A stretch of 43,633 nt of DNA from a virus (IMGVR_UViG_2563366881_000003), one strand, 5' to 3'; positions 7,230 to 38,400 are shown, counted from the stretch's first letter. Program-made: numbers and translations. Notes: generated by a model not told the origin, from the sequence alone.

Positions 7230-7453
7230 TTTCGGTAGGCTTCTACGGCTTCACGAAACATCTTTTCATCGCCAATAAAAGTGGCGATAGTGAATTTAGT
7301 CTGGATAGCCATAAGTGTTTTATCCATTTTGGGGAACTCCTGGCTGATTAAGTACGTCGATGAGTCGTTTCCATCCGTCACGTAATTTACGTGTGATTCG
7401 CTCAAGTAAAGATTCGGAAGGGCAGCCAGCAACAGGCCACCCTGCAATGGCAT
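7214..7453 (-). CDS. Small hypothetical protein (79 aa, or 37 aa from internal ATG at 7327)
   Basis: ORF; internal ATG has a GGAG 9 nt upstream. Confidence 0.3.
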   Translation of the reverse strand: MPLQGGLLLAALPNLYLSESHVNYVTDGNDSSTYLISQEFPKMDKTLMAIQTKFTIATFIGDEKMFREAVEAYRKWRSK

Positions 7454-7541
7454 ATTGCATGGTGTGCTCCTTATTCATTTACACTTGAAATTGCTCCGTG
7501 TATTCACTCGTTGGAATGAATACACAGTGCTTATTCGCAGC

Positions 7542-7868
7542 CTACATAATCATTCCGGTTATTATTACCATTTCAATATCACTATCTTTCATAATGATTG
7601 GAGTTGAGTTATCAACTTTACTTTTACTCCATTTTCCTGCATCAGTTTTTACCGTTCCACAATAAGAAAGCCAATCATCATCACAATGTTCTGGATCGCT
7701 AATTCTAACAAGAACACGTGATAGTGCTTTTTCGATACTTTCATCACAATCAGCATTTATGTAATTGCCGTGAGACAATTTCAAATCGTTAACCTCATCT
7801 TCATTGGCATCAAAAATATAGATTTCAGTCGACTCTGGAACATTTTCATAAACCATTAAAATTTTCAT
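7542..7868 (-). CDS. Acidic hypothetical protein, 108 aa
   Basis: ORF with GGGG upstream of ATG; about 24 Asp/Glu against about 11 Lys/Arg. Confidence 0.5.
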   Translation of the reverse strand: MKILMVYENVPESTEIYIFDANEDEVNDLKLSHGNYINADCDESIEKALSRVLVRISDPEHCDDDWLSYCGTVKTDAGKWSKSKVDNSTPIIMKDSDIEMVIITGMIM

Positions 7869-7887
7869 TTTACCCCATATTGTTTAT

Positions 7888-7912
7888 GCCAAAAATAAAG
7901 GCCGACTATGCG
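7888..7912 (-). terminator. Rho-independent terminator after the membrane-protein gene (minus strand)
   Basis: Hairpin AGGCCG-catagt-CGGCCT followed by TTATTTTTGG on the minus strand. Confidence 0.55.
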
Positions 7913-7920
7913 GCCTGAAA

Positions 7921-8370
7921 TTACTTAACCAATGATGCTGCATATTCGATAAGGTAAAGCTTTGGAGCCAGCCAAATTTTTAACCAAGTCATATTGGTTA
8001 CTGCATCAATAATAAAAATCCCCCACAGAGTCAAAACTCCAACCAATGGCATGATAAGAAGATTAATATCACCTTTGCTATCCCAAACCATTGTCGGCCT
8101 GTATTTGGGATTTCCTTTCTCCCATGAATATCCTTCATCACCGATTTTACCTATCTCAACTCTCTGGCACTGCTTCTTCATAAACCAGAAAACCAGTGGG
8201 ATTGTTAGAATGGCTATTAATGTTTTAATCATACTGTCAACCATATTCCATAGCAGCAACTGATGAACAACATCAGGAATCTGTGCCTGGCTAAATGAAA
8301 CAGCCGCGTCTATTCCATTGCTGGCTTTTTGCAGTAGTTCTACGAGAATCTTGTTTGCTTGTTCTTCCAT
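7921..8370 (-). CDS. Membrane protein with two predicted TM helices, 149 aa
   Basis: Hydrophobic stretches LIAILTIPLVFWF and LLIMPLVGVLTLWGIFII; own terminator; divergent promoter region shared with the SieB-like gene. Confidence 0.55.
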   Translation of the reverse strand: MEEQANKILVELLQKASNGIDAAVSFSQAQIPDVVHQLLLWNMVDSMIKTLIAILTIPLVFWFMKKQCQRVEIGKIGDEGYSWEKGNPKYRPTMVWDSKGDINLLIMPLVGVLTLWGIFIIDAVTNMTWLKIWLAPKLYLIEYAASLVK

Positions 8371-8513
8371 ATATCACCTTAAATAGTGGATTGCGGTTGT
8401 AAAGATTGTGCCTGTCTTTTAACCACATCAGGCTCGGTGGTTCTCGTGTACCCCTACAGCGAGAAATCGGATAAACTCTATTCACCCCTACAGAGAGCAA
8501 AAGAGAAACGCCG

Positions 8514-9095
8514 ATGAACAACTCATGGTGGCAGGAACTAATGCATTTTTTCCTGCAAGGAATGACACTTAAACAGTTGATTCATATGCTAATCATCCTG
8601 ATCATATTGATTATTGTTATGCCGGTAAGCGTAAAAGAATGGATAAACCTGCATAATCCAGAAATCCTTCCTCATTACTGGATGTATTACATCCTGTTGT
8701 TTTGCGTTAGCTATGTGCTTAACGGCGTTGTTAATTCCGCTTATTACGCTGTGACTGAAAGAATTGAGGTATTCGCTGCTCAGAAGCGCAAATCTAAAGA
8801 AGAGAAATACGTGCAAGATTTGTTTGATTCGTTAACTCTTGGAGAAAGAGCGTATTTGGCACTCGCTGTAGTCGCTAATAACCAGCTACAAACGGAAAAG
8901 GGAAGCCCTGAAGCAATCTCATTGCTCGAAAAAGGGCTTCTTATTCGGATACCTTCTGCTACTGGATATCCTGAAATCGACCGTTTTGTTATCCCAGAAC
9001 GCTATAGAAATGAGTGCTACATTAGGTTTGCTGGGAAGAAAGACAGTCTTATGGATGAACTTATCGCTCAGGATAAGCACGGCAAAAACAAGTAA
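8514..9095 (+). CDS. SieB-like superinfection-exclusion membrane protein (candidate)
   Basis: 193 aa, two N-terminal TM helices plus soluble C-terminal domain; size, architecture and early-left location resemble SieB of lambda/P22; transcribed opposite to the leftward operon. Confidence 0.45.
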   Translation: MNNSWWQELMHFFLQGMTLKQLIHMLIILIILIIVMPVSVKEWINLHNPEILPHYWMYYILLFCVSYVLNGVVNSAYYAVTERIEVFAAQKRKSKEEKYVQDLFDSLTLGERAYLALAVVANNQLQTEKGSPEAISLLEKGLLIRIPSATGYPEIDRFVIPERYRNECYIRFAGKKDSLMDELIAQDKHGKNK

Positions 9096-9241: not shown

Positions 9242-9775
9242 TTACTGGCTCCGTCCATGATTTTCATGAAAGCCATATAGTGCATTGGCTTCTTTCCTTG
9301 CTTGTTTGGCATCATCTAAAAGTTTGAATGAGCCTAGGTATTTTCGTTTTCCATCCACAGTTATCGATGCAACATAAAACCCATGCTCTTTTCTTTCTTC
9401 AACACCTGTAACTCCAGTTGATGAAGATGATTTTAAAGGCATGTTTTTCATATTCTCTTTGAAAGAAACGCTTCTTAAATTGGAGATTCTGTTGTCATCC
9501 TTAACGCCGTTTATGTGATCAATCACATCAGGCCAGTAGCCATGCACGTAAAGCCATGCAAGTCTGTGAGACTTAAATTTTTTACCTCCAATATTTATTC
9601 TCAGATAACCCTTGTTGTCAGGTGAGCCAGCCTTTTTACCTGGATACTTCTTGTTCCACGTCAAGGCAGCTCTGTTATCCGCAAACAAATGCTTTGCTCT
9701 CGGCTTCCAATAAAAGTCACCACTCACAGGATTGTAATGAAGAATCTCCCTTACAGACACTTGAGTAAGATCCAC
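9242..9775 (-). CDS. HNH endonuclease with AP2-like DNA-binding domain (paralog 1)
   Basis: Motif HRLAWLYVHG...IDHINGVKDDNRISNLR, C-terminal GV(T/S)... AP2-like segment; paralogous to three other ORFs in the window. Confidence 0.8.
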   Translation of the reverse strand: MDLTQVSVREILHYNPVSGDFYWKPRAKHLFADNRAALTWNKKYPGKKAGSPDNKGYLRINIGGKKFKSHRLAWLYVHGYWPDVIDHINGVKDDNRISNLRSVSFKENMKNMPLKSSSSTGVTGVEERKEHGFYVASITVDGKRKYLGSFKLLDDAKQARKEANALYGFHENHGRSQ

Positions 9776-10017
9776 TTAAACCTCCTAACAAAAACACTTC
9801 AATAACCCTCCGGTTATGGAAATGTTCTTTTGTAGTGAGCAGCATTGCCGTTCATCCTGAACCCGCCGCGCTCCCGACGCATGGTTTAAAGACGCGCCGT
9901 TCGTCTATGGGCTTATGATGTACTTAAAGTTCATTAATGTAAAGTACAAATAGTACATTTTATGGGTATAAAAAGCTCACTACATCATAAGTTAGTGAAC
10001 TTTAAGGAAATTTATTT

Positions 10018-10725
10018 TTATCCGAATCGCTTGTAATCGATTGACTGCCTAATGAGGACTTTGGCTAGAATGTGAAGTTGCTCTTCTTCACCTTCTTCTA
10101 TGTACCATCGATCATAAGCGGCATTGTCAGAGATGACGGCAAGCCTGTTCTTTTGCATTTGCAGGCGCTTAACGTGCATTGTTTTCCCGTATACAAACAC
10201 ATAAATGCCATCGCCATCAAAATAGGTTATGGATACATCAACAAAGATCTCATCTCCCGGATTGATGGTTCCCTCCATGCTGTCACCGCGAACCGTGATG
10301 ACTTTTACGCTTTCCTGTGGCCTTCCATTAAATAAAATTCTTGCCTGCTCGGGCGTATATTCAATTGCTCTTATCTTTTCTATAAATTCATTGGAAACCA
10401 TGGTTCCTGGCCCGGCGCTCGCCTGAACATCCAATACATCAACACGATAAGAATCATTTGATCTTGATAGATGATTTACCGTGATACCGTCATAATCAGC
10501 ATAGCCATGCAGATATGCAGCAGTAGTTCCCAGCACCGAAGCCAGAGATTCCATCTTGTCTTTTCTTGGTATTGACTCCCCGTTGAACCATTTACTAATG
10601 GCTTTTGGTGTGACCTTAAGCCTGACAGCTAAATCAGCCTGCCTACCATGCAAAGGTAATCCCGCTTTATCACAGGCCAGCGCAAGCCTCTGCGAGAAAG
10701 TTTCACGCTCTTTCTGTTGAACCAT
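10018..10725 (-). CDS. cI: CI-type prophage repressor (HTH plus S24 LexA-like peptidase domain)
   Basis: C-terminal GDSMEGTINPGDEIFVD ... HVKRL (Ser/Lys dyad); start at MVQQKE (ATG 10725) lies inside an operator palindrome with no SD, consistent with a leaderless transcript. Confidence 0.8.
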   Translation of the reverse strand: MVQQKERETFSQRLALACDKAGLPLHGRQADLAVRLKVTPKAISKWFNGESIPRKDKMESLASVLGTTAAYLHGYADYDGITVNHLSRSNDSYRVDVLDVQASAGPGTMVSNEFIEKIRAIEYTPEQARILFNGRPQESVKVITVRGDSMEGTINPGDEIFVDVSITYFDGDGIYVFVYGKTMHVKRLQMQKNRLAVISDNAAYDRWYIEEGEEEQLHILAKVLIRQSIDYKRFG

Positions 10726-10733
10726 AAGTTCAA
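10717..10733. promoter_or_regulatory. Operator (OR3/OR2-like) palindrome TTGAACcataaGTTCAA overlapping the cI start codon
   Basis: 17-bp site with perfect 6-bp inverted half-sites; a second copy occurs 57 bp away. Confidence 0.6.
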
Positions 10734-10745
10734 CTATATTAGGTA

Positions 10746-10790
10746 TTGACTGTACTATCAGTTCCGTCATAATATGAACCATAAGTTCAC
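10746..10790 (+). promoter_or_regulatory. pR-like promoter (TTGACT-16/17-CATAAT) with OR1-like operator TGAACcataaGTTCA at 10775-10789
   Basis: Consensus-like sigma70 hexamers upstream of cro; operator palindrome overlaps the transcription start region. Confidence 0.6.
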
Positions 10791-10804
10791 CACAGGAGAG
10801 AAGC

Positions 10805-11035
10805 ATGAACGAAGTTACGTTTGGAGAAGTTATCAAATCCGTTCGAGTTTCTGTTGTGGCTGATGTTTGTGGACTTACGCCAAAAGCCATCTATAAGTGG
10901 CTTGAGCGTGGTTCTCTGCCGCGTACCGAGTTCACTGGTGAAACCGAATATGCGGATAAGATCGCCAAGGCATCAGGCGGCAAGTACTCAGCAGCACAGA
11001 TTCGCCGTATCGGTAAACAGCAGTTTGTTATGTAA
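10805..11035 (+). CDS. cro: Cro-like repressor
   Basis: 76-aa HTH-like protein divergent from cI, SD AGGAGAG upstream. Confidence 0.7.
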   Translation: MNEVTFGEVIKSVRVSVVADVCGLTPKAIYKWLERGSLPRTEFTGETEYADKIAKASGGKYSAAQIRRIGKQQFVM

Positions 11036-13909: not shown

Positions 13910-14116
13910 GTGGCTGAGTTAATTTTCTCTGCATTGAGGCTTCTCGGTGCTATGTGGATGGTGGCGACGTTCATTGTGGTTGTCGGAAGTTTTGTCCGGT
14001 TGGTAGGCGAAGGTAAAGACCTGGTGGGTGTGCTGTTCGGTAGCATTCTCCTGTGGGTGATTATCGGTGTTATGCCTGTCGCTGTAGCAAAAATGGCGTG
14101 GCGTTTTGTGAGTTGA
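13910..14116 (+). CDS. Small membrane protein (68 aa, GTG start)
   Basis: Two hydrophobic helices; ORF only. Confidence 0.4.
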   Translation: MAELIFSALRLLGAMWMVATFIVVVGSFVRLVGEGKDLVGVLFGSILLWVIIGVMPVAVAKMAWRFVS

Positions 14117-29587: not shown

Positions 29588-30044
29588 GATCGTCCTTTTT
29601 GCGCTTCGTAAGTTTGCTATTGCTTCTAACGCATCGCTGACTGATGTTGAGCCGCAATCAATTGAAGATGGTGTAAATGATCTGGAAGATATGATGTCCG
29701 AGTGGATGATTAACCCCGGCGACATTGGTTACGCTTTCGCAACTGGAGATGATCAGCCATTACCAGATGATGAGTCAGGTCTTCCAAGAAAATACAAACA
29801 CGCAGTAGGCTATCAGTTATTGCTGAGAATGCTATCTGATTACAGCCTTGAACCAACTCAGCAAGTTCTCAGTAACGCCCAACGCTCATATGATGCCTTG
29901 ATGACCGACACTCTGGTTGTTCCTTCAATACGACGACGTGGAGATTTTCCTGTAGGACAGGGTAATAAATATGACGTGTTCACATCTGACCGATATTATC
30001 CAGGCGATCTCCCTCTGATTGATGGCGATATCCCAAACGCATAG
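29562..30044 (+). CDS. Head completion / tail accessory protein, P22 gp4-like
   Basis: TKGEIVLFALRKFAIASNASLTDVEPQSIEDGVNDLEDMMSEW matches recalled P22 gp4 N-terminus. Confidence 0.8.
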   Translation: MATVLTKGEIVLFALRKFAIASNASLTDVEPQSIEDGVNDLEDMMSEWMINPGDIGYAFATGDDQPLPDDESGLPRKYKHAVGYQLLLRMLSDYSLEPTQQVLSNAQRSYDALMTDTLVVPSIRRRGDFPVGQGNKYDVFTSDRYYPGDLPLIDGDIPNA

Positions 30045-38323: not shown

Positions 38324-38324
38324 A

Positions 38325-38400
38325 GTTGAAGCCCCAACTGCGGGAACAGTCAGGGCTTCTGTTGTCAGTAAATCCGTGGAGAAAAACCAACATGAATAGT
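38325..38400 (-). ncRNA. sar-like antisense RNA covering the ant ribosome-binding region (candidate)
   Basis: Arc-ant intercistronic hairpin GAAGCCC...GGGCTTC at 38330-38361; P22 has sar here. Confidence 0.35.

Follow-up and report, generated by a model that had tools for sequence, protein, structure and literature searches.

A direct repeat in the sieB control region of an HK022-immunity phage and its possible role in matching the sas antisense RNA to the sieB mRNA

The sieB locus and its genomic setting

The stretch of DNA analysed here, 43,633 nucleotides in full and referred to as the window, is from a temperate, P22-like lambdoid phage of the HK022-immunity type. Its immunity region comprises a cI repressor gene (10018-10890, minus strand) and cro (10805-11035, plus strand), and positions 9833-10030 are 99% identical to the oL/pL/putL region of HK022. 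Given the HK022-type oL/pL, the minus-strand cI and the plus-strand cro, the early-left operon reads the minus strand. Early-left antitermination relies on put RNA (HK022-type putL). N and nun genes are absent from the immunity-left region of the window, their position being filled by a gene for a 177-aa HNH (HNH_3) endonuclease (9242-9775). Besides the HNH endonuclease and SieB genes a kil gene is present, and Rfam models identify the lambda cIII thermoregulator (7415-7473, minus strand, 88 bits) and the sar RNA, which in P22-like phages is the antisense RNA of immI (38324-38391, minus strand, 92 bits).

A gap of 143 bp, as already given in a preliminary description of this DNA, separates sieB from a gene for a 149-aa membrane protein. 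The sieB gene (8514-9095, plus strand) encodes a 193-aa protein that belongs to phrog_1301 and matches the Pfam family SieB (PF14163; E=3.6e-23, 82.2 bits, cut-off 26). Within it, an in-frame ATG at 8586 (codon 25, M25) is the predicted start of esc; in the P22 record BK000583, esc begins 72 nt downstream of the sieB ATG. The sieB promoter PsieB (-35 box TGTACC at 8447-8452, -10 box TAAACT at 8472-8477, plus strand) is identical to the promoter annotated in BK000583 at 29690-29720. That record also holds a 'sieB RNA start site' at 29727, which is the first A of the second ACCCCTACAG and is equivalent to position 8484 of the window; this transcription start site (TSS) is thus assigned by homology to a third-party annotation of P22, and the supplements of PMC8175672 and PMC7067206 give no TSS for sieB.

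The decamer ACCCCTACAG occurs twice on the plus strand of the gap, with the copies starting at 8450 and 8484, which bears out the earlier observation of two copies 34 bp apart. Copy 1 (8450-8459) covers positions -34 to -25 of PsieB. Since the annotated RNA start is the first A of copy 2 (8484-8493), copy 2 forms the first ten bases of the sieB mRNA. Beyond the ten exactly matching nucleotides, the repeat extends to 15 identical positions out of 17 (ACCCCTACAGCGAGAAA at 8450-8466 and ACCCCTACAGAGAGCAA at 8484-8500), and 0.23 such matches (14-mer, at most 2 mismatches) would be expected by chance in the whole window. Neither a third exact copy of the decamer nor its complement elsewhere, as a trans-acting RNA would carry, was found in the window.

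Over 190 nt, the control region is 94% identical to that of P22. Phages Oslo, SPN9CC and VT1-Sakai have an unchanged stretch of roughly 105 bp ahead of sieB, although the gene on the far side differs. Judged by this similarity, the gap contains, on the plus strand, the promoter and leader of a P22-type sieB and, on the minus strand, the sas antisense RNA. Transcription of the plus strand would accordingly begin at 8484, from a weak constitutive promoter, with 30 nt of leader ahead of sieB/esc. The window agrees with P22 in gene order and orientation at sieB, in both promoter hexamers, in the base of the TSS and in the start of Esc, and the two phages differ in antitermination (gp24/N in P22, HK022-type putL here) and in the gene that follows sas (ral in P22, the 149-aa membrane-protein gene here). 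Lambda (J02459, 34358-34480) shares with the window an identical conserved block, hairpin 1 of the antisense RNA, the -10 box and both decamers; it differs in the SieB N-terminus and leader, with the ATG only 4 nt past copy 2, and in the gene on the far side, which is orf28/ral.

The 149-aa membrane-protein gene

The open reading frame (ORF) of 149 aa (7921-8370, minus strand) contains two hydrophobic segments (residues 43-65 and 100-125), in agreement with its first description as a two-TM protein. It is preceded by the Shine-Dalgarno sequence AAGGTGA (8374-8380, minus strand; identified from the sequence and alignments), in a flank common to lambda orf28/ral and to the ORF on the ral side in P22. 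Lambda orf28 has the same Shine-Dalgarno sequence and begins with the same three codons (MEE), which points to gene replacement at the start codon. At the other end, a terminator-like hairpin begins 4 nt past the stop codon (stem 7916-7899, T-run 7898-7889, minus strand; AGGCCGCATAGTCGGCCT followed by TTATTTTT). The preliminary description had attributed to the gene a terminator of its own at 7888-7912, close to the 7916-7889 found here. The same hairpin and T-run follow every 149-aa homologue (loci L001, L002, L115 and L119), with a variant stem in Oslo, and the terminator travels together with the gene. Some 20 nt past this terminator starts the next gene of the operon (7542-7868, minus strand), which encodes a 108-aa acidic protein (phrog_4658).

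The 149-aa protein belongs to phrog_3054. All its 516 homologues are annotated as 'hypothetical', and those with a source name are from Enterobacterales; Pfam, NCBIfam and PADLOC returned no match. The N-terminal helix, the loop and a C-terminal amphipathic motif are conserved in the family, and the two TM helices vary. The AlphaFold model is of low confidence (pLDDT 66), and a Foldseek search with it against viral structures gave nothing usable (best hit E 1.8e-3, TM 0.37).

Among about 120 loci, homologues of the 149-aa protein occur in five, in all five directly adjoining the sieB/sas-type module described below and in one of them (L119) beside a module without sieB. The slot that the gene occupies holds orf28/ral in lambda and many different genes in other loci. 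Because the pL operon reads the minus strand, the gene is co-directional with it, and a consensus scan found no sigma-70-like promoter on the minus strand between 8371 and 8600. The suggestion that the two genes are transcribed divergently from a shared control region is thus not upheld. The 149-aa gene resembles a moron in being a mobile single-gene cassette with its own terminator; it differs in that the consensus scan detected no promoter of its own. On the sieB side, the likeness to a moron lies in a promoter-leader-gene cassette with exchangeable cargo.

The 149-aa cassette would have been inserted in a variable 'ral slot' of the minus-strand pL operon and, having no divergent promoter, would be transcribed with that operon by a put-modified, terminator-resistant RNA polymerase. 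By analogy with the known mechanism of HK022, this polymerase should pass the 149-aa terminator during lytic growth. Most likely, its product is an accessory protein of the inner membrane that is made early.

The sas antisense RNA and its structure

Ranade and Poteete reportedly described, in 1993, the P22 sieB/esc locus together with its sas antisense RNA. In P22, SieB is the exclusion factor and Esc is the SieB inhibitor, and sas blocks the translation of SieB while that of Esc continues, so that the phage escapes its own exclusion system (reviews including PMC12197685). Using the P22 sas sequence from the reads of a 2026 small-RNA study (PMC13397905), we located a homologue of the 127-nt form at 8393-8518 on the minus strand, which agrees with the P22A-sas reads in 122 of 127 positions. 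The review gives sas a length of 105 nt (PMC12197685), in which case the 3′ end in the window would lie near 8410-8414. The homologue overlaps the sieB mRNA at 8484-8518, which covers the leader, the ribosome-binding site and the start codon. Rfam 15 gave no match at the gathering score within 8371-8520 and only chance-level matches (E of at least 3.7), and sas is apparently missing from that collection.

A promoter for sas was not found in a sigma-70 scan of the gap and the first 90 nt of sieB, and no TAnnnT at a suitable distance was seen when the minus-strand sequence upstream of 8518 was inspected by eye. As the N-termini of the genes downstream of the module (hereafter cargo) have no common sequence, a conserved sas promoter within the cargo is unlikely. 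From the lack of a detected promoter it follows that sas is probably made by processing of pL transcripts.

Three structural elements can be recognized on the minus strand. Hairpin 1 (8441-8465) consists of the 5′ arm UUCUCG-C-UGUA, the loop GGGG and the 3′ arm UACA CGAGAA; read on this strand, copy 1 of the repeat corresponds to the GGGG loop and the upper 5′ arm. Hairpin 2 (8476-8505) is predicted, with the anti-Shine-Dalgarno stretch pairing with GGGGUGAAUAGAG around a CUGUA loop. The third element, a conserved 3′ block (8410-8440), is invariant across Enterobacterales and may form an H-type pseudoknot from the stems S1 (GCCTG at 8410-8414 with CAGGC at 8429-8433) and S2 (CCAC at 8423-8426 with GTGG at 8437-8440; both in plus-strand coordinates). 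A covariance model (CM) matches the window at 8407-8470 on the minus strand with 69.5 bits.

The structure is specific to one strand. Hairpin 1 has a mean dG of -9.0 kcal/mol on the minus strand and -6.0 kcal/mol on the plus strand, and its minus-strand fold is the better one in 68 of 74 variants; for the region of copy 2 and hairpin 2 this holds in 61 of 72. In repeat types B, D and E the hairpin 1 fold differs between the strands by 6-9 kcal/mol, because many G.U pairs of the minus strand are A.C on the plus strand. The arms of hairpin 1 co-vary among relatives (TTCTCG/CGAGAA, ATCCT/AGGAT, TTCTTA/TAAGAA and TTCTTG/CAAGAA, among others). Realignment with the covariance model yielded 102 matches (91 distinct), from sequences that are related to one another and were collected with search patterns that fixed parts of the block. 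In this alignment, which is biased towards the model, 92.6% of the cells are paired and 12 of the 16 pairs have changed on both sides, 10 of 11 in hairpin 1. The covariation score is 0.358, against 0.150 after shuffling (none of 500 shuffles reached the observed value) and at most 0.08 with a slid partner. The alignment contains 139 G.U cells when read as the minus strand and would contain 46 as the plus strand. Taken together, the advantage of the minus-strand fold, the covariation and the G.U asymmetry argue for a functional structure in the pL/sas transcript.

For the possible pseudoknot, 99.4% of the cells are paired and three pairs (nine cells) have changed on both sides, in a block that the search patterns largely fixed; formal covariation support is weak because most positions never vary. 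Compensatory variants of the block are nonetheless found: GCCCGG/CCGGGC (in Rac), GCCGGG/CCCGGC and TCAC/GTGA. The S1 pairing was taken from the CM alignment, automated extraction of the arms being noisy.

Repeat types and distribution among relatives

IMG/VR and one genome per GTDB species were scanned for the conserved block beside a repeat, and IMG/VR additionally for the type A hairpin, which together gave about 100 distinct elements. Their hosts are Escherichia, Salmonella, Klebsiella-like bacteria, Enterobacter, Citrobacter, Edwardsiella, Serratia, Pantoea, Proteus, Providencia, Morganella, Photorhabdus, Xenorhabdus and others. About 20 matches in unrelated taxa were set aside as contamination, being 100% identical to lambda on tiny contigs of low coverage. 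The assemblies concerned, most likely contaminated with lambda, are labeled Nocardioides, Vibrio, Paenibacillus, Bradyrhizobium and others (loci L141-L143, L146, L150-L152, L154, L158, L162, L163, L167, L169, L170, L172, L174-L177, L181 and L184).

The layout of the elements is constant and consists of the block, the hairpin, a TAnnnT box, a second copy 32-35 bp from the first and a start codon some 25-35 nt beyond that copy. The TAnnnT box lies 31-33 nt past GGTGG, the offset being constant for 69 of 71 distinct elements. The preliminary description had made its case depend on the repeat recurring in related prophages; it does so, at a distance of 32-35 bp, in 79 of 104 distinct elements, and in 76 of these 79 the first base of copy 2 falls within -2 to +1 of the predicted +1.

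The repeat falls into some seven or eight types, and the two copies change together. The sequences found in both copies include CCCCTACAG, TCCCCAACAACAA (type B), TTCCACAGTCAA, CCCCAATGCAA, CCCCAACATAA, CCCCCACAA and CTCCCCAGCAA. Single-base changes are mirrored in both copies as well, as in Trabulsiella and Photorhabdus. On average, the copies agree at 10.5 of 14 positions within an element and at 6.5 of 14 between elements, and none of 2000 permutations reached the observed within-element value. About a quarter of the distinct elements have no exact repeat of at least 8 nt, the Xenorhabdus variants show only weak similarity between the copies, and in the best fold of type C the complement of copy 1 lies in a different part of the hairpin. 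One locus in IMG/VR (L070, module at 13998-14061) is a natural hybrid with copy 1 of type A (ACCCCTACAG) and copy 2 of type E (ACCCCCACAA).

Type A occurs alike with lambda N, P22 gp24, 21-like N and HK022 put. Types A and E are found in one Morganella genome, and types A and C in Proteus. A host factor as the determinant of the repeat type was rejected on the grounds of the two types in the same Morganella genome.

The module precedes at least eight unrelated cargo genes, at a nearly constant distance from block to start codon. The cargo ORFs comprise three SieB subtypes, phrog_1244 (a coiled coil with CxxC pairs), short proline-rich peptides and the families phrog_5286, phrog_10348, phrog_8894, phrog_25023 and phrog_7681. 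Some prophages have two modules 0.5-0.8 kb apart that resemble stacked promoter-leader-cargo cassettes (L011 at 8907-8969 and 9401-9469; L069 at 672-740 and 1197-1259; also L027, L186, L061 and L157). One group of elements (IMG/VR loci L026, L032, L057, L065 and L119) retains the block and hairpin 1, has no downstream ORF and carries a G+C-rich hairpin (CACCCCCTTATTTTGTCAGGGGG) in place of copy 2 and cargo.

The Rac prophage of E. coli K-12 (L130; NC_000913.3, ~1,418,560-1,418,670) carries a diverged module ahead of sieB, with S1 arms GCCCGG/CCGGGC, copy 1 ATACCCCTACAG, the -10 box TAACAT and copy 2 ATACCCTTACAG; the predicted start of Rac sieB lies near 1,418,646. The KilS sRNA of Rac, annotated at 1,418,405-1,418,502 on the minus strand, was considered as the same element and rejected, as it lies about 55 nt beyond the block, has its own start and is a transcript separate from the module.

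Interpretation of the repeat

The reading we prefer, to which we assign a probability of about 0.6, is that two independent things meet at this locus: an accessory cassette of the pL operon, and a P22-type sieB/sas module in which the repeat serves RNA logic. Reading of the minus strand, probably from pL in this phage, would yield sas, which by analogy with P22 would switch translation from SieB to Esc and so prevent self-abortion. Copy 2, the 5′-terminal 10 nt of the sieB mRNA, would act as a handle, and the complement of copy 1, displayed by sas hairpin 1 in its GGGG loop and upper 5′ arm, as an anti-handle. Pairing with the mRNA may be nucleated at its 5′ end by the exposed loop of hairpin 1, and the handle and anti-handle would then constitute a specificity code that must match within one phage. 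Among explanations that call for no outside partner, such nucleation is the simplest. For duplexes of the hairpin region with the 5′-terminal 16 nt of the mRNA, calculated energies range from -18 to -25 kcal/mol for cognate pairs; those for non-cognate pairs of types are mostly -4 to -16 kcal/mol, with a few reaching -21. A protein partner is unlikely because type A spans the N, gp24 and put types of antitermination and because one Morganella genome has types A and E and Proteus species have A and C. Some features sit less easily with our reading, among them the elements that lack a clean repeat, the different fold of type C and the undetected sas promoter. Besides, an antisense RNA encoded opposite the leader is its full complement to begin with, which would seem to leave little for a second complementary element to do.

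Antisense RNA control that starts from a loop is known from CopA/CopT of plasmid R1, RNAI/RNAII of ColE1 and Sok/hok. The sas module resembles these systems in having a structured antisense RNA with an exposed loop complementary to its target, and in a specificity that is set by sequence and able to diversify. It differs in that the element in sas is a putative second copy, located outside the overlap and aimed at the 5′ end of the mRNA. Immunity based on RNA is likewise known, in the form of the P4 CI RNA with seqA/seqC and the c4 RNA of P1/P7, which are processed by RNase P. There, too, short repeats set the specificity type through their identity with an RNA regulator. These RNAs have no sequence or Rfam similarity to the sas module, and they control immunity or antirepressor genes, whereas sas controls an exclusion gene.

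Seen across the family, the co-varying handle and anti-handle, the structure confined to one strand, the portability of the module and its absence from Rfam suggest a wider scheme, which we put forward tentatively and at somewhat less than an even chance: a portable, self-silencing prophage cassette distributed across Enterobacterales, with at least seven specificity types of handle and anti-handle. In such a cassette, a constitutive promoter and leader would drive accessory genes antisense within the early-left operon, the cargo being variants of SieB along with seven or more families whose function is unknown. The anti-handle in the read-through RNA from pL would match the first 10-13 nt of the cargo mRNA. 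A lytic phage would thereby silence its own cargo and that of residents of the same type, and other types would be spared. If true, this would add an RNA lock-and-key layer to the conflict between prophages and phages.

Among the competing explanations, the one that fares best, while still unlikely, is that an RNA-binding protein or ribonuclease recognizes the GUAGGGG-type elements of the minus strand and acts in the processing or stability of sas. The location of the structure on the minus strand would fit, as would the discrete 127-nt species seen in P22 although no promoter is visible, and the conserved 3′ block with its possible pseudoknot could be a determinant for a protein or nuclease. 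A host enzyme, however, has no need of loops and arms that differ among the phages of one host genome, and it would be left unexplained why copy 2 coincides with the start of the mRNA.

Next in order, and hardly likely, is that the decamers are operators for a DNA-binding regulator of a divergent sieB/149-aa promoter pair. Their positions at -34 to -25 and +1 to +10 of PsieB are places where a repressor blocks polymerase, and concerted change of both copies is also expected when a protein and its operators co-evolve. Against this, the gap has no detected promoter on the strand of the 149-aa gene, the window shows neither a third site nor a candidate regulator, and the identity of the repeat begins at the mRNA 5′ end. 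The arms, moreover, change together in the manner of an RNA helix whose G.U pairs are confined to one strand, which a DNA site does not predict, and the repeat type is independent of cI/Cro, N, put, cargo and host. The preliminary description had taken the repeat for the binding site of a regulator. Its sense that the repeat is under functional constraint, and regulatory, is supported at the RNA level; the protein-bound DNA site is not, given the lack of a link between the type and cI, N, put or host and a constraint that fits a minus-strand RNA hairpin.

That the repeat is an old tandem duplication of the leader, functionless and kept similar by gene conversion, we consider improbable. The resemblance of unit 1 to unit 2 does continue past the decamer (CGAGAAATCGGATAAAC versus AGAGAAACGCCGATGAAC); the duplicated unit would comprise the handle, a Shine-Dalgarno-like stretch and GAT[A/G], and when the units are aligned the start-codon region of unit 2 falls opposite the -10 box of unit 1. 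Yet the identity is limited to 8-14 nt with diverging flanks, it has been kept in at least seven types and several families of Enterobacterales, and single-base changes are mirrored in both copies. Least probable is a single two-gene membrane system in which the 149-aa protein would work together with SieB, for example as a toxin and its partner or as exclusion and escape factors, since, for all their adjacency in the window, Oslo and SPN9CC-like phages and the predicted membrane location of both, most neighbours of sieB differ (orf28/ral, ea10 and many others), the homologue in L119 adjoins a module without sieB, and P22 SieB already has a partner in Esc, encoded within sieB. The self-contained island of two membrane-protein genes proposed at first is likewise contradicted by relatives, which exchange the two genes independently.

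Implications

The sieB/sas locus of the window is an already known element, and what had been described as a divergent control region is corrected here to the known sieB promoter, leader and sas RNA. The co-varying code between the mRNA 5′ end and the antisense RNA, together with the portability of the module, was not found in the accessible literature and may be new. If the code holds, it would define an RNA family that is absent from Rfam and provide a testable rule for how prophages spare their own lytic cycle from the abortive-infection and exclusion genes they carry. It would also predict which phages switch off which resident exclusion genes.
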